Source: a virus. From it: 64,000 nt of DNA. The notes under the pieces are model-generated. The model saw only the letters and a program-made list of their open reading frames with translations. It had not been told where the DNA came from and ran no database searches. Shown one piece after another: positions 22,130 to 29,807 of this stretch; the stretch's first letter is position 1, and the number at the start of each line of letters is the position of its first letter. A program made the position numbers and the translations under genes. The stretch covers positions 21,817-85,816 of the IMG/VR virus record IMGVR_UViG_3300025728_000001; one strand, given 5' to 3'.

Positions 22130-22888
22130 ATGGATGGGAACAAAACAATCGCAGCGGCTACTACAGAGCAGGAAGGCGCCGCGCCTGGCGATACCCAGCC
22201 GTCGGTGCTCTCGCTGTTTTGTGAGTCGGAGGATTTGGGGGTTGGTGCTGGCAAGAGCGAGCGTCGGCGGGCCGAAGAGGCCAAGCTGATGGCCGTTATG
22301 GGTGCCAAGCTGCGCCGGGCGCGCAAGGCTGCCGGACTGAGCGCGAATGACGCGGGGCTGGCACTGGCACAAGAAGGGATGACCATGATCAGCCTGTACG
22401 AGAATGGCCATCGTCTGCCCAGCCTTACTAACATTCGTTTAATGGCACAATTGTACGGCGTGACCACCGATTACCTGTTGGACATGCACGACGACGTTGT
22501 GGCCCGGCCAGAAGACGGCAATCAGGCTGTTCTAAAGGGAATTATCAGTACCTCCCTAATGGGCCAGTTTGGCCAGTTCGTAGATGTCATGTCCCGCCGC
22601 AACTCCGTAATGATCGAGGCCCTGAGCTTGGATCGCGCCCTGTTGTCCAGCCTGGCCGTCGTCGCCACTGATCTGGTCAGCGCTTTAAACGTCGTCAAAA
22701 CCCACGCCCCCGAGTTCGAAGAGATTCGCGGAGGTGCAAAGCTCGTCCGTTTGGTCGGTGAGCTGCATGTGAGTATGTCCGAACAGATACGCCGCCGAGC
22801 GCGCGAGGAAGCCATGGCCGATTACGAGCCCTTCTATCCCGCGCCGGACCAGATTGCAGAGAAGGTGCAGCAGTTCTTTTTGTTTTAG
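22130..22888 (+). CDS. XRE-family HTH transcriptional regulator
   Basis: LRRARKAAGLS...ISLYENG...YGVTTDYLL. Confidence 0.85.
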   Translation: MDGNKTIAAATTEQEGAAPGDTQPSVLSLFCESEDLGVGAGKSERRRAEEAKLMAVMGAKLRRARKAAGLSANDAGLALAQEGMTMISLYENGHRLPSLTNIRLMAQLYGVTTDYLLDMHDDVVARPEDGNQAVLKGIISTSLMGQFGQFVDVMSRRNSVMIEALSLDRALLSSLAVVATDLVSALNVVKTHAPEFEEIRGGAKLVRLVGELHVSMSEQIRRRAREEAMADYEPFYPAPDQIAEKVQQFFLF

Positions 22889-22894
22889 AAGGTG

Positions 22895-23435
22895 GATACA
22901 CGGGCTGGAGAGGTGGACGCGTATAGCCCTGCGTGGCGTCCACTGGCTTGACCAGCTGGTTAACGGGGGCAGTGGTACCCCCGCAAGCTTGAACTCGATC
23001 AGGCTTGCGGGTTTCTAAAGGAGTACGCATACCGGAGCGCTTTGTGAAGAGCACTGCGGTATGCAGTAGGCCGAAAGGTGAGCAAGCATGGCCGGGGCTT
23101 CCTACCGGTTGTAGAGGCGCCAGTAACGCGGGTTGACCATGCGCCTAAGCGCGTTACCTGCTGCATTTCGAATTTGCGCTCTGCGCGGATAGCTTGGCCT
23201 CCTTAAGGGGCATGTGATGCGGTCGCTCGTCGTTGGTGGTCAGGTGTGCGGTTTGCACTCGGCATATAGCGTCCTTAGACAGTGCGCTGAAACACCGCGG
23301 CATGGATAACCGACAGGGAGAAAGGTATTACCACCTTTGCGGCGCCGATCAGTAGCGTTCCCGTTGGCTGATAGTGGTGGGGGTCTACCAGGACCAACGC
23401 CCAAAAGAATGGCCCGCTCTGCGGGCTATTTTTTT
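22895..23435 (+). ncRNA. Candidate large structured ncRNA (~540 nt, multiple stems, two pseudoknots)
   Basis: More than 10 stems with G-U pairs, a GNRA loop, a long-range helix and a terminal intrinsic terminator; no credible ORF. Confidence 0.6.
23410..23435 (+). terminator. Rho-independent terminator
   Basis: GGCCCGC-TCT-GCGGGCT followed by ATTTTTTT. Confidence 0.75.
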
Positions 23436-23506
23436 AAGGTGAAGCGCAAGAAGTTGGCCGCGTTACCACGGCTGACAGCGAACATATTACGCATTAGGGA
23501 TAACAG

Positions 23507-24580
23507 ATGCCGCGCAAGCCAGAGAGTGATAAACCTGCGATGTCGAGGGATGATTTATCCCCGTCCAAGGCTCCGGCGCGTGATCGAAAACCTGCAAAAC
23601 CGCGCGCGGCTAATGCCAACACGGTGCAAAGCAGCAAAAAGCCGGCCACCACGGAAACTAAAAAGCCCGTGAAAGCTGCTGCTAAACCTGCCGCTAAACG
23701 CAAGCCTCGCAGTGCGGCCACGATTGGAAGGACTGCGATCAAGAACCCGGTAAAGCTCCCCCCTAAGGCCCAGCAAGCCATTGATATCTCTGCGTTTCAA
23801 GGGCTCGACGCCCGACAGGCGAAGTTCGTGGATCTGTGGCTGGTCACCTACAACGGGGCTCAGTCCTACCGGGACGCGGGTTACAAGTGCAAGAACGACA
23901 ACGTTGCGCGGGTGGGTGCCCACAAACTGCTAACTAAGGTTAAAAACCACCCGTATACGCTCGCTCGACAGGTTGAACTGTTCTCACGCACCGCCGATGT
24001 GCAAAACCAGATCGTCGCCACCTTCCACGCCGCCTCCTTTGCCGATCCGCGGGAACTGGTCGAGTACGTGCGCCGGTGCTGCCGCTATTGCTATGGCATC
24101 GATCACAAGTTTCAGCTGCGCCCCAGTGAAATGGAGCGCCGCCGCCAGCAGTACGAGGCGGACAAAACCGCCCTCAAGGCCGAGGGCAAGGAAATTGGCG
24201 AGTTCGACGAGCTGGGTGGTGTGGGCTACGACGGCAAGAAGTCGCCCAACTACGATTGCCCCGAGTGCGACGGCGAAGGCGAAGGCCGCGCACTGTTCAA
24301 AGACAGCTCCACCCTGTCCCCTGCTGCCCTGACGCTGTACGAGGGCGTGAAAGAGGGCAAGGACGGTACCGAAATGAAGGTGGCCAGCCAGAAAGGCTAT
24401 CGCGACTCCCTGGCGAAGCTGTTCAACATGAACGTAGAGCCGGCGGTAACAGTGACGCTGGGTATCAGTGAAGAGAAGTTAGAGGAAATCCTGGCGATAG
24501 CTGAGGCGAACACTCAGAAGAATCGCGAGGCCATGTCAGCCCGCGCCGAAGAGCTGGCCAAGATAGGGATTGTGTCGTGA
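23507..24580 (+). CDS. Terminase small subunit (basic N-terminal tail, Zn-finger insert)
   Basis: LDARQAKFVDLWLVTYNGAQSYRDAGY Terminase_2 HTH; CCRYC...CPEC. Confidence 0.85.
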   Translation: MPRKPESDKPAMSRDDLSPSKAPARDRKPAKPRAANANTVQSSKKPATTETKKPVKAAAKPAAKRKPRSAATIGRTAIKNPVKLPPKAQQAIDISAFQGLDARQAKFVDLWLVTYNGAQSYRDAGYKCKNDNVARVGAHKLLTKVKNHPYTLARQVELFSRTADVQNQIVATFHAASFADPRELVEYVRRCCRYCYGIDHKFQLRPSEMERRRQQYEADKTALKAEGKEIGEFDELGGVGYDGKKSPNYDCPECDGEGEGRALFKDSSTLSPAALTLYEGVKEGKDGTEMKVASQKGYRDSLAKLFNMNVEPAVTVTLGISEEKLEEILAIAEANTQKNREAMSARAEELAKIGIVS

Positions 24581-24858
24581 AGCATCCAGGCCCGACTGCG
24601 GCCGATGTTAAGCATTCACGCGTTACCACGGGCCTAAGCCAGCGAGCGAGCGCCGCCCTGATCCACGTCAGCCGGAGAGCCTGGCAGACGTATGAAGACG
24701 GGACGGTTGTGATGAAGCTTGGCCTGTGGGAGCTGTACCAGTTCAAGACCGGACAAATATGGGTCTGTCCGCTGCCAGTGAAGGGCGCGAAGCGGGCGAC
24801 ATTACGCCAGGGTAGGCAAGAAAACTTAACGCCATTCAAGGCTAAGTCACAGGAGTAG
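24577..24858 (+). CDS. Small XRE HTH protein
   Basis: GLSQRASAALIHVSRRAWQTYEDG. Confidence 0.7.
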   Translation: MKHPGPTAADVKHSRVTTGLSQRASAALIHVSRRAWQTYEDGTVVMKLGLWELYQFKTGQIWVCPLPVKGAKRATLRQGRQENLTPFKAKSQE

Positions 24859-24864
24859 GTACAC

Positions 24865-25521
24865 ATGCCGCACGTAGAGAAATCAGTTGCTGTTGAGCGT
24901 CGTTCGCCTGTTGCCGCACCAGGTGCAAGCATCGTGAACGATATCGGCCTGTTGAATGCCGAGCAGATCCCGGCCTTCCGGGTGTTCCTGGAAGAAAGCG
25001 GCCTGCTAGTCCGTGATTCGGGCGCTGGGCAGTTCTTTCACGTCCGCCTGCCTGAGTTGCCGCGCTGGCTGCCAATCGAGCGTGGTCGTGCCGGTGCGCC
25101 GGTAACGCCGGACGTGTTGCGCCCCTTCGTGGCCAGCTTCCTCAAGAAGCCATTGGATAGCGTGATGGGCGAGGTTCGTGCAGCCCGCCAAGCTGCTGAG
25201 CGTGCCGTGGCCCGTGCAGCGCTTGATTTACCGCTGAATGTCTTTTCTGCCTCGCCTGCCTTATTGGAGCCGATCCGCCCCGTAGAGCCAGAACAATCGG
25301 TTGTCACGTCATCACAGGGTGTGGCTTTCATGCCTGCGCTCGCCAAGCAGGCCGCACCATTGTCGAGTTACCTCAGCGACCTGCGCGACGACTTCGCCTT
25401 GCATGCGCCCATCCCTTTGTGCTCACTCCACACCGAGGACGACCTCATGAACCATGCTATTCGCCGCTGGGAGTACGCGGACGTGATGCTTTCAACACGA
25501 TCCGTAAAGGCCGGGGATTAA
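24865..25521 (+). CDS. Hypothetical protein
   Basis: AGGAG RBS; LRDDFA...ADVML C-terminal motif common in phage proteins. Confidence 0.55.
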   Translation: MPHVEKSVAVERRSPVAAPGASIVNDIGLLNAEQIPAFRVFLEESGLLVRDSGAGQFFHVRLPELPRWLPIERGRAGAPVTPDVLRPFVASFLKKPLDSVMGEVRAARQAAERAVARAALDLPLNVFSASPALLEPIRPVEPEQSVVTSSQGVAFMPALAKQAAPLSSYLSDLRDDFALHAPIPLCSLHTEDDLMNHAIRRWEYADVMLSTRSVKAGD

Positions 25522-25717: not shown

Positions 25718-26176
25718 ATGAGCCAGTCACAGAAAGCCCTGTTAGCCGCCACTGAATTGAATCGCGCCACCCGCCTGGTGCGGTTGCAGCACGCCAACGC
25801 GGTGTTGATCGAGATATCGAAGGTCGGGAACCACACATGGGCGAACGAAGCGGGGGACGTGTGCCGCTTGCGCCTCACCATCGACGGCCGCGTGCATTTC
25901 CGCGACCACAACCCGGAAACGCCAACCATCGACCTGCACAGCACCGCCAAGGGCACCCACGGCTTCTGGCTGGGGTTTCCCTACAAGGGCTCCGAAGCGC
26001 TGGTGCTGCGCGGCCTGCGCGACTACGTGGCGAAGGGGACCAAGATCCACCGCACGTTGCTGGTGCCGCTGGTGAATGGGCGCCTGGCCCGTGGGTATAC
26101 CGCCGACGACGTGGCGCTGATCGAGGACCGGTTGAAGTTCGTGCCGATCTTTGTTGAGCCGGGGGCGCGGCCATGA
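25718..26176 (+). CDS. Hypothetical protein, diverged paralog of 3684..4352
   Basis: Aligned blocks ANAVLIEISKVG / WLGF...LRDYVAKG. Confidence 0.6.
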   Translation: MSQSQKALLAATELNRATRLVRLQHANAVLIEISKVGNHTWANEAGDVCRLRLTIDGRVHFRDHNPETPTIDLHSTAKGTHGFWLGFPYKGSEALVLRGLRDYVAKGTKIHRTLLVPLVNGRLARGYTADDVALIEDRLKFVPIFVEPGARP

Positions 26177-26760
26177 TTTTTCTGAATCGCGCTGATTTTG
26201 AGTATGCCGCCAAGGAAGCCGGGATAACCGACCTTGAGCACGCCGGGGAGCATTACGCCAACCCCCACACGCAAGCGGCCTTCTTGGTCTGGATGAGCGT
26301 GGCATTCCCGCGCACCAGCACCGGGGTCAGTCCGCTGGCGTGGGTGAATCGTCGTAACGGCAAGGCGGTGGGGCTGAGCATGACGCGCCCGAGCGGGCCA
26401 GAGTCGGCCGGCTGGGCCAAGCGCCGCGCCCAAGGCTGGGAGCCGTCTATGCCGATGTTCGCCAACGTGCCAGGGGTGAGCCCCGAGGTGATGGCGGTCG
26501 TGCTTGAGCACCAGCGCCAGCGCCAGGAAGAGGGCTATTCGATACAGAGCGACCTGGCGCAATACCGCGGTGGCGAGCTGGCGCGGTCGGCGGCGTGCTA
26601 CGCGATGCAGGCCGGTGGCATGTATCCCCTACGGTGGGCCAACTTCTGGCCGTTTAACTCGAAAATGAAGTCGTGCCCGCCCACTGAATCGCTGATCAAG
26701 GCGGGCGCACTGATCTTTTCCGAACTGGAGCGCATCAAGGCACAAGAGGCGGCCCGATGA
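26173..26760 (+). CDS. Hypothetical phage protein
   Basis: EHQRQ..EEGY...GELARSAACYA...LIKAGALI common phage domain. Confidence 0.6.
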   Translation: MIFLNRADFEYAAKEAGITDLEHAGEHYANPHTQAAFLVWMSVAFPRTSTGVSPLAWVNRRNGKAVGLSMTRPSGPESAGWAKRRAQGWEPSMPMFANVPGVSPEVMAVVLEHQRQRQEEGYSIQSDLAQYRGGELARSAACYAMQAGGMYPLRWANFWPFNSKMKSCPPTESLIKAGALIFSELERIKAQEAAR

Positions 26761-27446
26761 GTTTGCCACCGCTCTACGAGGATGCCCGGTGGCCCGCGTT
26801 CATCGCTCGTTACGCCAACGACCTCTGCGCGTTTGCCGCTGATGTCCTCGGCATGGAGGTAACGCCAGCGCTCGCCCACGCCTACTGCCTCGCCTCGCTC
26901 CCTGGCTGTCGTGTGTCCATCGCTACCGACATCGATTTGAATGGTGTCGACGCCATTAGCCCGATGGCGCCTATCGCGATCTGGCGCCTGCTGTGTCGCC
27001 CTGAGTCCAGAACCTTAGTGACCATTCCTTTTGGTGGTGGGCGTGCCCGCAAACAGCAATACGTGCGGTTGCTGACGTGGATGGTCGAGGGCGCCCATAG
27101 CTGGTTGCGCGCCTATATCAGTGTTGACGCTACTCAAATCTATCTGCGGCGCGGGTATACGGGCTCGAAAATCCTGTTCCTCTGTGCCGACCAGAGAAGC
27201 CCCGAGAGTCTGGCCGGGTTCTACGGGGGTCACATTTGCTGGCTGATGGAGGCCGCCGAGGACATTCCTGATGCGTGTTTCAGCGTGGCGCTCGCGGCGA
27301 TGACCGATCCGGGCGCCTGCATGCTGCTCACCAACAAACCTTGGCGGGAATCGGGGTTTGCCGCCGACACACGCGGAAAGCTGAGCAAGGACCAGGGCGG
27401 ACAGTGGGACGTCTGCGCCTTGGCTGGCGCGCAAACCACGCAATAA
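26757..27446 (+). CDS. Inactive paralog of the TerL ATPase domain
   Basis: Colinear with TerL N-terminus (RWPAFIARYA, GCRVS, PESLAG, SGF, QGGQW), but Walker A and B are lost and there is no nuclease domain. Confidence 0.8.
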   Translation: MSLPPLYEDARWPAFIARYANDLCAFAADVLGMEVTPALAHAYCLASLPGCRVSIATDIDLNGVDAISPMAPIAIWRLLCRPESRTLVTIPFGGGRARKQQYVRLLTWMVEGAHSWLRAYISVDATQIYLRRGYTGSKILFLCADQRSPESLAGFYGGHICWLMEAAEDIPDACFSVALAAMTDPGACMLLTNKPWRESGFAADTRGKLSKDQGGQWDVCALAGAQTTQ

Positions 27447-27512
27447 GTGCCATCAAATCAAGCAGTAAGGTGTAAGGGCCGGTAATACGGCCCTTTTGCG
27501 TTAAGGAATGGC

Positions 27513-29807
27513 ATGGCCAGGGCGAAGAAAGAAAAACAGTTGGTGCTCGATGCCGATCCGCGCTGGCCTGCGTTTGTTGCCCGGTATGCCTTCGAACAGT
27601 ACAAGTTCGCCGTCGAAGTGTGCGGCATGGGCATTGTGGGCAAGCCCGTAACGCACCAGCAGAAAGAACTGTTCGATGAGGCCTCGCCCTATGGCTGCCG
27701 GGTGTCGGTGGCGTCTGGCCACGGCTGCTTTGCGCTGGGCACTAAACTCATGCTCGCCAGCGGTGAGCCGATTGCCGTAGAGGACGTGAAGTCTGGCCAG
27801 CGCCTCATGGGCGCCGACGGCTCGCACGCCACCACGGTCCTGGAGCTTAAGCGTGGGCGCCAGGCCATGTACCGGTTCACCTATACCGACGGCACCAGCC
27901 ACACATTCAACGAAGCACACATTCTTTGCCTGGTGGCCATCGCGCCCGATGGTGACGTGGGCGTGGGCGCCGAGATTGAAACGTCCGTAGAGCAGTGGTT
28001 GACCTGGGGGGCGGACAAGCAGGCCCGGTATGCGACCTATCGAAGCGATGCCAAGTCGTTCCGGCGCCCACTGCGCAACCTGTCGGTGTCTCCATACGTC
28101 ATGGGCCAGCGGCTGGCGCTTTCTGGTGAGCTGATCCCCGCCGATTACCTGTACAGCGGCCAGGCGCAACGCCAAGAGCTGCTGGATGGCATGGTGGGGC
28201 GTGCTGGCGCCCAATTCATTAGTGGGAGCGAGGCTGTCACCCGTCAAGTGAGCTGGCTGGCGCGTTCGGTTGGGTACCACTCCAGTGTGGTGCGCCTTGA
28301 GTCCGGCAACTGGCTGGCCAAGATCGATCGGTTGCCTGGCGCGCTGCACTTCGCGATTGCTTCCTGTGAGGCGCTGGGGGAGGGCGACTACTACGGCTTC
28401 ACCCTGGACGGCGACAACCGGCTGCTTGGGCATGACTTCACCGTTCTGCACAACACCGGCAAGACTAGGAGTTTTGGCGTTATAGCGCTTTGGCACCTGC
28501 TCTGCTATCGCAACTCAAACACCTACATCACCGCGCCAAAGCTCAAGACGGTACGGGAGGGTGTCTGGAAGGAAATCACCACACTCAAGGCGCAGATCGA
28601 GAAAGGCCCGCACGCCTGGATTGCGCAATACATCACCATCCAGGCCGAAAAGGTCTACATCAACACCAAGTCGGCTATCTGGTACGTCACGACCCGTACA
28701 GCGCCCCGCGGCTCGCCTGAGAACCTGGCCGGTACCCACGGTGATTACCTCTTATGGATGGCGGATGAGGCGTCAGGCATCCCGGACGAAAACTTTGGTG
28801 TGATCGGTGGCGCCCTCACCGATCCGCGTAACCGTTTCATCATGGCCAGCCAGCCTACCCGTAGCAGCGGGTTCTTTCGTGACTCGCACCACAGTAAGAG
28901 CAAGCGCCAGGGCGGGGCGTGGACAAGCCTCACATTCAGCTCCGAAGAGTCGACGCTGGTTGGTATCGAGTTCATCAAGGAAAAGCTCATCCAGTACGGT
29001 GGGCGCGATGAAATGGAATACCAGATCAAGGTCCGGGGCATGTTCCCGACCAACTCAAGCAAGTACCTGCTCAGCCAGGCAGCCCTTGAGCGCGTCATTG
29101 AAGGCCCGAACGTCATTCTGCCGGGCGAAGCCTATGGTCACCTGATCATCGTCGACGTGGCGGCGGGCGTAGGGCGAGACAAGACCGTGGCCACCCATAT
29201 GAAGGTGATCGGCAACGGCGACCGCATGAGCGCAGACCGGCGCCGGATTGAGGTAGTGGCGGTACCGGTCTACACCAACACCGAAGACTGGACACCGGTG
29301 GCGGTGAAGGTGCTGGACTACGCGGCGCAGTTCTCCAACGTAACGATCATCGTCGACACCAACGGCATGGGTAACCAGTTCCTCAAGCGGCTGATAGAGC
29401 TGTCGGGCGGCGGTATCCATGCCAAGGGCTGTCGCTGGGGTGAATTGCCGTTCAGCAACGAATACCGCAAGCGATTCCTCAATCAGCGGGCGCAAAGCAC
29501 CGTGCACCTGGTTGAGGCGATCAAGGACGGCGTGGTACGTCTGTCGAGCCAGTACAAAAAGGATCTGATCGACCAGGGCAGCCGTATTCCTTACTTCCTG
29601 GACGAGCTGGGGCGATATCACATCGCCCGCAAGCAGGACATGGCCGCCGAGGGTCTGCCATCCCCCGACCTTTTGGACACGCTCGCCATGGCGTTTCTGG
29701 AATCTGCGGACTACGTGCCAGCGCAAGGCGAGGCCGTCAGCCTCAGCACAGACAGGCGCCAGGCCGCACTTGATGCGGCTCGCGAGGCGCTGGCGGGCAT
29801 CACGTAA
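27513..29807 (+). CDS. Terminase large subunit (P1 PacB-like) with intein
   Basis: Spliced Walker A SGHG/TGKT, Walker B LLWMADEASG, RNase H nuclease IIVDVAAG...SPDLLD. Confidence 0.93.
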   Translation: MARAKKEKQLVLDADPRWPAFVARYAFEQYKFAVEVCGMGIVGKPVTHQQKELFDEASPYGCRVSVASGHGCFALGTKLMLASGEPIAVEDVKSGQRLMGADGSHATTVLELKRGRQAMYRFTYTDGTSHTFNEAHILCLVAIAPDGDVGVGAEIETSVEQWLTWGADKQARYATYRSDAKSFRRPLRNLSVSPYVMGQRLALSGELIPADYLYSGQAQRQELLDGMVGRAGAQFISGSEAVTRQVSWLARSVGYHSSVVRLESGNWLAKIDRLPGALHFAIASCEALGEGDYYGFTLDGDNRLLGHDFTVLHNTGKTRSFGVIALWHLLCYRNSNTYITAPKLKTVREGVWKEITTLKAQIEKGPHAWIAQYITIQAEKVYINTKSAIWYVTTRTAPRGSPENLAGTHGDYLLWMADEASGIPDENFGVIGGALTDPRNRFIMASQPTRSSGFFRDSHHSKSKRQGGAWTSLTFSSEESTLVGIEFIKEKLIQYGGRDEMEYQIKVRGMFPTNSSKYLLSQAALERVIEGPNVILPGEAYGHLIIVDVAAGVGRDKTVATHMKVIGNGDRMSADRRRIEVVAVPVYTNTEDWTPVAVKVLDYAAQFSNVTIIVDTNGMGNQFLKRLIELSGGGIHAKGCRWGELPFSNEYRKRFLNQRAQSTVHLVEAIKDGVVRLSSQYKKDLIDQGSRIPYFLDELGRYHIARKQDMAAEGLPSPDLLDTLAMAFLESADYVPAQGEAVSLSTDRRQAALDAAREALAGIT
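27726..28454 (+). mobile_element. Intein (243 aa) in TerL Walker A
   Basis: Begins CFALGT, ends FTVLHN followed by Thr; block B HIL; remnant LLDGM...ARSVG endonuclease segment. Confidence 0.92.

Follow-up and report, generated by a model that had tools for sequence, protein, structure and literature searches.

The 64,000-nucleotide stretch analyzed here (the window) comprises bases 21817–85816 of the IMG/VR virus record IMGVR_UViG_3300025728_000001, which is 85.8 kb long and has direct terminal repeats. Directly upstream of the gene for its large terminase (TerL), the window encodes a 229-residue protein that is a nucleotide-blind copy, encoded on its own, of the PacB-type TerL ATPase domain of this phage. 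Ratios of nonsynonymous to synonymous substitution rates (dN/dS) indicate that this paralog is maintained as a protein by purifying selection. The two genes, with the evidence for each, are:

26757–27446, + strand: Walker-less paralog gene, 229 residues (open reading frame, BLASTP to TerL, phrog_5902, AlphaFold2 model, dN/dS)
27513–29807, + strand: large terminase TerL of the PacB type, 764 residues (tblastn to pacB, phrog_2, phrog_5902)

A preliminary description of this DNA had proposed an intact 229-residue frame that is colinear with the spliced TerL ATPase domain and shares six short blocks with it. Frame 26757–27446 (+) is indeed open, and all six blocks were found in both proteins. BLASTP aligned the paralog with TerL in two colinear segments, one on each side of the TerL intein. 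The first segment covers 54 N-terminal residues at 46% identity (E 2e-9) and the second covers 180 residues at 32% identity (E 5e-27). The TerL is of the phage P1 PacB type by its tblastn matches to pacB and by phrog_2 and phrog_5902. Its intein (243 residues, Hint-type/homing-endonuclease-type; TerL residues 72–314, nucleotides 27726–28454) lies inside the TerL Walker A motif, where it begins with C and ends with HN between the flanking GHG and TGKT.

The structure of the paralog was predicted with AlphaFold2 from an alignment of 33 sequences comprising paralogs and TerL N-terminal domains (alignment A2). The model has a predicted local distance difference test score (pLDDT) of 89.9 and a predicted template modeling score (pTM) of 0.89. 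When it was compared with the PDB using Foldseek, the best matches were all TerL ATPase domains (E down to 6e-7, TM-score 0.5–0.66), the top ones being those of P74-26 (4znl, E 6e-7), Sf6 gp2 (4ife), D6E (5oea), T4 gp17 (2o0j) and HK97. Predicted alone, as the preliminary description had suggested, the paralog adopts the ASCE (additional strand, catalytic glutamate)/TerL ATPase fold.

The ATP-binding motifs are lost in every paralog aligned. Opposite the Q motif of TerL, T(H/P)QQ, the paralogs have TPAL or DKEL (THQQK becomes TPALA in the pair from the window). The Walker A consensus GxxxxGK(S/T), present in TerL as SGHG(T)GKT, is replaced by TDIDLNGVDAISP in the paralogs, and the lysine occurs in none of the 22. 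At Walker B (hhhhDE), WMADE becomes WLME(A/D/N/G), with an invariant Glu as the first acidic residue and a variable residue at the catalytic position; the paralog in the window reads WLMEA. The replacement of both Walker motifs that had been claimed for this protein is thus seen in the alignment as the loss of the lysine and of the catalytic Glu. The paralog ends at the ATPase domain boundary, without the C-terminal RNase H-like nuclease domain, again as first described, and no second nuclease-like copy was found elsewhere in the 85.8 kb genome.

The elements that paralogs and TerLs keep in common, invariant or nearly so, are the N-terminal D-x-R-(W/Y)-P-x-F-x-x-R-Y helix, W116 and the PExLAG sequence that precedes the Walker B strand. 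Two further invariant motifs, SPxAPIAxWRLL and WLME, are new in the paralogs. The family phrog_5902 (function unknown) matches the paralog over residues 7–211 (E 4.8e-19) and the true TerL as well (E 7e-64), so that a match to it does not distinguish paralog from TerL.

A search of 5.8 billion proteins returned 14 homologs of 228–240 residues and 40–90% identity, from Pseudomonas isolates, plasmids and soil metagenomes. Related loci (numbered with the prefix L) were drawn from viral, genome and metagenome collections. The paralog lies directly 5' of TerL in ~17 related Pseudomonas phage-plasmid loci, whose TerLs are 62–99% identical to that of the window. Orthologs are 225–280 residues long, and in ~20 of them, down to 28–45% identity, the frame is intact with no frameshift. 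In a maximum-likelihood tree all 22 paralogs fall in one clade (100/100) on a long stem, nested among the TerLs of the group and branching later than two outgroup TerLs from genomes without a paralog. Because all paralogs share this one clade, the tree indicates one old duplication of the 5' half of the phage's own TerL gene, followed by rapid change and then by maintenance. The duplication is placed at the base of a group of ~80–95 kb P1-like Pseudomonas phage-plasmids. The separation in the tree is clean, and inspection of alignment A2 by eye gave no sign of gene conversion or co-evolution between the paralog and the N-terminus of its own TerL.

A protein that has lost all catalytic motifs and the nuclease domain, and that no curated family covers, could be the decaying, functionless remnant of a duplicated or displaced TerL. 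Selection tests refute this explanation, and we regard it as barely credible. By the Nei–Gojobori method, dN/dS of the paralog is 0.11–0.43 in seven unsaturated pairs and significantly below 1 in each of them (Fisher p 3e-8 to 7e-17); the TerL ATPase domain, compared in those same pairs of genomes, has 0.02–0.07, and TerS, the small terminase, has 0.13–0.29. The intact frame of the orthologs, the newly invariant motifs, the confident compact fold and the ~40 clusters at 50% identity (see below) likewise speak against decay. The preliminary description had argued that retention of the frame was hard to reconcile with decay and had named a homolog survey with dN/dS estimates as the check; with length kept down to 40% identity and 0 frameshifts in ~20 orthologs, neither a dN/dS near 1 nor disruption of the frame was seen.

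The paralog is the penultimate gene of a terminase module whose order in relatives is TerS, a 93-residue helix-turn-helix (HTH) protein, a 218-residue protein, a 152-residue protein, a 195-residue protein, the paralog and TerL. The genes upstream of the paralog in the window are:

23507–24580, + strand: small terminase TerS (Terminase_2), first gene of the module (Pfam PF03592 E 9e-13, phrog_51, synteny)
24577–24858, + strand: 93-residue HTH protein, module gene
24865–25521, + strand: 218-residue protein, module gene
25718–26176, + strand: 152-residue protein, module gene
26173–26760, + strand: 195-residue protein, function unknown, stop overlapping the paralog ATG

The translational coupling to the upstream gene that had been proposed is supported by the overlap of the paralog ATG with the stop of the 195-residue gene (ATGA at 26757–26760), an overlap that is likewise called in CP048608.1.

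We tentatively favor, at a probability of roughly 40%, a reading of these features in which the paralog acts as a non-catalytic accessory subunit of the terminase, or as its regulator or brake. The paralog would bind a partner of TerL through the surfaces that it still has in common with TerL. The prime candidate for this partner is TerS; a second TerL ATPase domain or pac DNA could serve instead. Binding would tune when or how the TerS–TerL holoenzyme assembles or cuts pac, with no ATP hydrolysis by the paralog itself. The fixed position in the module and the translational coupling to the TerS-side genes point in this direction, as does the retention of the TerL N-terminal motif and of shared surface elements while the chemistry alone was removed. 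In well-studied terminases (lambda gpA/gpNu1, T4 gp17/gp16) TerS docks on the N-terminal ATPase region of TerL, and a nucleotide-blind copy of that region could therefore compete for the contact or bridge it. Dead ATPase subunits are structural parts of other ring ATPases, for example delta and delta' of the clamp loader. The paralog would be helpful rather than essential, because two close relatives have lost the gene.

Several observations weigh against a role of this kind. The paralog is cleanly missing from L013 (TerL 88% identical) and from L016 (TerL 94.5% identical and intein-bearing), in which the module is otherwise whole and the 195-residue gene lies directly before TerL. In L021 it is duplicated in tandem, with two diverged copies (412–1056 and 1053–1853) upstream of one TerL. 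Compared over the same genome pairs, its dN/dS exceeds that of the TerL ATPase domain by a factor of 4–13. P1 and all 31 matching deposited phage genomes have one match place each, namely TerL, and three Pseudomonas plasmids have two match places each. The paralog is an accessory gene, and loss, duplication and fast evolution together typify conflict genes more than core machinery. One of the two L021 copies retains a GHG remnant of Walker A (SAGHGDEQG).

The absence from L013 and L016 is, given the tree, more simply read as loss. The 195-residue proteins of these two loci end in KAQ-STR and AQTAQ, respectively, and resemble the paralog tails GAQSGR and GAQTTQ. Since they end with the tail that otherwise ends the paralog, the pattern fits a precise deletion at a repeated GCGCAA. 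The shared tail is also the GCAAA box of the predicted TerL promoter (below), and constraint from the promoter alone could equally give it.

Another possible function, also raised in the preliminary description, is exclusion. The paralog would then be a dominant-negative factor that disables packaging by related phage-plasmids, whether co-resident or superinfecting, by poisoning their motor, with the cognate TerL insensitive to it. A truncated, ATP-blind copy of a subunit of an oligomeric ring is the classic design of a poison subunit, the divergence is fast and lineage-specific, and soil and rhizosphere samples contain phage-plasmids of this group side by side (in small shares). We nevertheless judge this possibility to be improbable, since the gene belongs to the late packaging block, is coupled to upstream genes and gives no hint of being expressed during lysogeny, and since such a factor would threaten the phage's own TerL as well.

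Dead copies of TerL domains recur among the relatives. In one clade of relatives (L006–L009 and L018) the homolog of the 218-residue protein of the window (24865–25521) reaches ~430 residues through an insertion: a TerL nuclease-like domain separates its N-terminal module from its C-terminal one. These genes lie at:

L006, 5145–6437: ~430-residue protein
L007, 5173–6459: ~430-residue protein
L008, 5178–6473: ~430-residue protein
L009, 5173–6468: ~430-residue protein
L018, 5192–6472: ~430-residue protein

The inserted domain is 28–35% identical to TerL residues 514–741. It looks catalytically dead, because its first catalytic Asp is replaced (IVDVA to GARVA). A separate 239-residue gene just 3' of TerL in L011 (9557–10276) and L024 (5557–6276) is 44% identical to the TerL nuclease domain and has also lost the first catalytic Asp (IVDVA to TVVVA).

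A profile of 15 close sequences, searched against 1.84 billion cluster representatives, gave 413 matches. The long ones are TerLs with Walker A and B, or contain inteins, and ~40 representatives of 50% identity clusters (185–270 residues) lack both Walker motifs. In a 114-sequence tree, 41 Walker-less short sequences form one group (Shimodaira–Hasegawa approximate likelihood-ratio test, SH-aLRT, 87), and two more Walker-less groups occur among other PacB-type TerLs, the P0058 set (SH-aLRT 97) and the P0064 set (99). The members of these sets (P0058, P0084, P0086 and P0156; P0064, P0081, P0091 and P0113) are 230–280 residues long. In the alignment neither set has the Walker A lysine or the DE pair, and both keep the Q motif. 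Their nesting among other TerLs suggests that they arose independently. A search of viral contigs for the two sets gave 0 loci for P0081 and 48 loci for P0058, each of the latter with a single ATPase-like open reading frame, a TerL. GenBank labels the paralog gene 'hypothetical protein', and in the literature we found no relevant account of a TerL paralog or a terminase pseudoenzyme.

This recurrence bears on a further explanation, in which the paralog mimics TerL toward the immune proteins that recognize it (Avs1–3, Upx) and either occupies these sensors or shields against them. It might compete for the sensors without activating them, or mask TerL up to the time at which TerL docks on proheads, and the dead nuclease copies of relatives might act alike. 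Besides the dead copies (L006–L009, L018, L011, L024) and the two further Walker-less clades, the loss in L013 and L016, the tandem duplication in L021 and the fast evolution would be in keeping with such a role. The published evidence pulls both ways. The TerL ATPase domain alone suffices for recognition by Avs2 and Upx, and small TerL-ATPase-like proteins, for which a possible anti-defense role has been suggested, bind the Avs2 pocket (PMC13601566). However, all characterized proteins of this kind (vs.8, Ksap1 and Ksap2) are activators of Avs2 and not blockers (PMC13601566; PMC11564622). The sensors also read features that the paralog does not have: SeAvs3 recognizes active-site residues of the terminase together with bound ATP, and in EcAvs2 a bridging ATP contacts the terminase's ATP and Mg shell (PMC13601566; PMC11564622). 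These structures argue against a simple Avs decoy of the kind that the preliminary description had inferred. The gene also lies within the packaging block rather than in an early or anti-defense region, and it has no PADLOC match. We consider protection from TerL sensors doubtful as the function of the paralog.

A broader version of this idea is that P1-like phage-plasmids repeatedly made dead copies of both TerL domains into a class of terminase mimics directed against Avs1–3 and Upx. The proposed class would comprise the ATPase-like family described here, the two Walker-less ATPase clades and the two nuclease-like kinds. We think that such a class is unlikely; if it exists, its members would be the first anti-defense proteins that mimic a conserved viral protein recognized by immune receptors. 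Of the odds spread over the explanations of the paralog itself, the remainder falls to something not yet thought of.

The preliminary description had also placed the paralog upstream of a late promoter for TerL and inferred that the two genes are transcribed separately. The predicted signals between the last paralog codons and the TerL start are:

27431–27471, + strand: predicted TerL late promoter, GCAAA-N30-TAAGGT (spacing-specific motif, conserved box)
27431–27435: GCAAA box, within the last paralog codons (A-Q-T)
27466–27471: TAAGGT, −10-like
27476–27493, + strand: GC-rich hairpin GGGCCG/CGGCCC (sequence)
27494–27497: TTTT run
27503–27508: ribosome-binding site
27513: TerL ATG

On the + strand of the window, GCAAA-N-TAnnnT occurs four times at N = 30 and once at N = 31, with no occurrences at N = 24–29 or 32–36. 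In relatives, whether or not they have the paralog, TerL is preceded by the GCAAA box, a −10-like TAnnGT and a hairpin. This layout makes it most likely that the paralog ends a TerS-side transcription unit and that TerL has its own promoter. Separate transcription of the two genes is a prediction. The hairpin and TTTT run (27476–27497) could be the terminator of the upstream unit, the 5' stem of the TerL mRNA, or both; covariation support from RNAalifold was weak, and a scan for consensus terminators did not list the hairpin. In the window (27431–27497) and at the equivalent positions of L004–L018, the GCAAA box imposes an A-Q-(T/S) tail on whichever protein precedes TerL, the paralog or the 195-residue gene product. 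A GCAAA-N30 match at 22736, considered as a promoter of the TerS unit, was rejected because it lies inside an open reading frame.

Contigs of 6–23 kb from soil metatranscriptome libraries, belonging to a relative that is 90–95% identical, span TerS through TerL and include the paralog. They may be DNA carry-over and therefore show neither transcription, timing nor transcript ends. These contigs skip exactly the 729 intein nucleotides and so represent an intein-less TerL allele. Among the relatives this intein is shared by L016 only, and intein-less TerL alleles occur in relatives as well. TerL inteins are also present in L023 and in several database representatives of the phage group.

The remaining genes of the module are sparsely annotated. 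Neither the paralog nor any of its neighbors of 152, 195 and 218 residues is covered by a model in Pfam, NCBIfam or PADLOC, and a megablast search of the TerS–TerL block against deposited phages gave no match. The 195-residue gene is the constant 5' neighbor of the paralog in relatives, and in those that lack the paralog it is followed immediately by TerL. Over its last ~90 residues its product matches the C-termini of eight PHROG families, none with a known function (phrog_6628, 9763, 14548, 9434 and others; E 1e-16 to 4e-6). These residues form a mobile domain without a Pfam, NCBIfam or PDB relative, and comparison of the protein with PDB sequences returned noise only. The 93-residue HTH protein is Xre/MqsA-like, is coupled to TerS by an ATGA-type overlap and is kept in all relatives; it may partner TerS in pac recognition or in regulation. 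TerS is preceded by a gene-free, helix-rich gap (22889–23506). Because a strong terminator-like hairpin with a T-run (23411–23435) ends this gap, TerS probably has its own start signal within the last 70 nucleotides before the gene.

TerL is the most conserved protein of tailed phages and a main target of bacterial pattern-recognition immunity. To this picture we add a family of considerable size, ~40 clusters at 50% identity, that is clearly under selection, has no name and had been annotated as hypothetical only. A TerL-derived copy stripped of every nucleotide-binding element separates the shape of TerL from its chemistry. It is a natural reagent for asking what Avs and Upx sensors read and whether a pseudo-subunit can regulate the assembly of terminase. 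Members of the family reside on plasmids of cultured Pseudomonas strains, for example the P. fluorescens DR133 plasmid CP048608.1 (gene GZ982_30070) and the P. putida plasmid NZ_AP015032.1, which makes genetics feasible.

Among the closest known systems is the PacB-type TerL ATPase domain itself (P1 PacB and the phage's own TerL), with which the paralog is homologous (32–46% identity to its own TerL); its fold is that of solved TerL ATPase domains. Unlike these domains, the paralog is a separate 229-residue gene, has no Q motif, Walker A lysine, catalytic Glu or nuclease domain, and evolves 4–13 times faster. An analogy may be drawn with clamp-loader delta and delta', in which a degenerate P-loop domain is likewise kept as a structural or regulatory partner of active paralogs; these subunits belong to another ATPase family, and membership of the paralog in a TerL or TerS assembly is a proposal.

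Stand-alone copies of the TerL ATPase domain (vs.8, Ksap1 and Ksap2) were recognized very recently, and the field itself raises the question of what they are for. In being a small, separate phage gene with TerL ATPase architecture, the paralog corresponds to the vs.8/Ksap type as described (PMC13601566). T4 vs.8 is likewise a small phage protein paralogous to the ATPase domain of the TerL in its own genome (gp17), of unknown function and restricted to one phage lineage (Evans et al. 2026, PMC13601566). However, vs.8 keeps Walker A and B and was shown to trigger EcAvs2 (PMC13601566), whereas the paralog has lost the Walker motifs. The paralog also adjoins TerL, its phage-plasmid is P1-like, and the TerL from which it derives is of the PacB type rather than the gp17 type. 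Ksap1 and Ksap2 (Bas60_220), which activate KpAvs2 (Bechon et al. 2024, PMC11564622), are similarly small, lineage-restricted and TerL-ATPase-like, with unknown function. The paralog differs from the stand-alone TerL ATPase paralogs known so far in being Walker-dead, in lying next to TerL and in belonging to a broad family in P1-like phage-plasmids.

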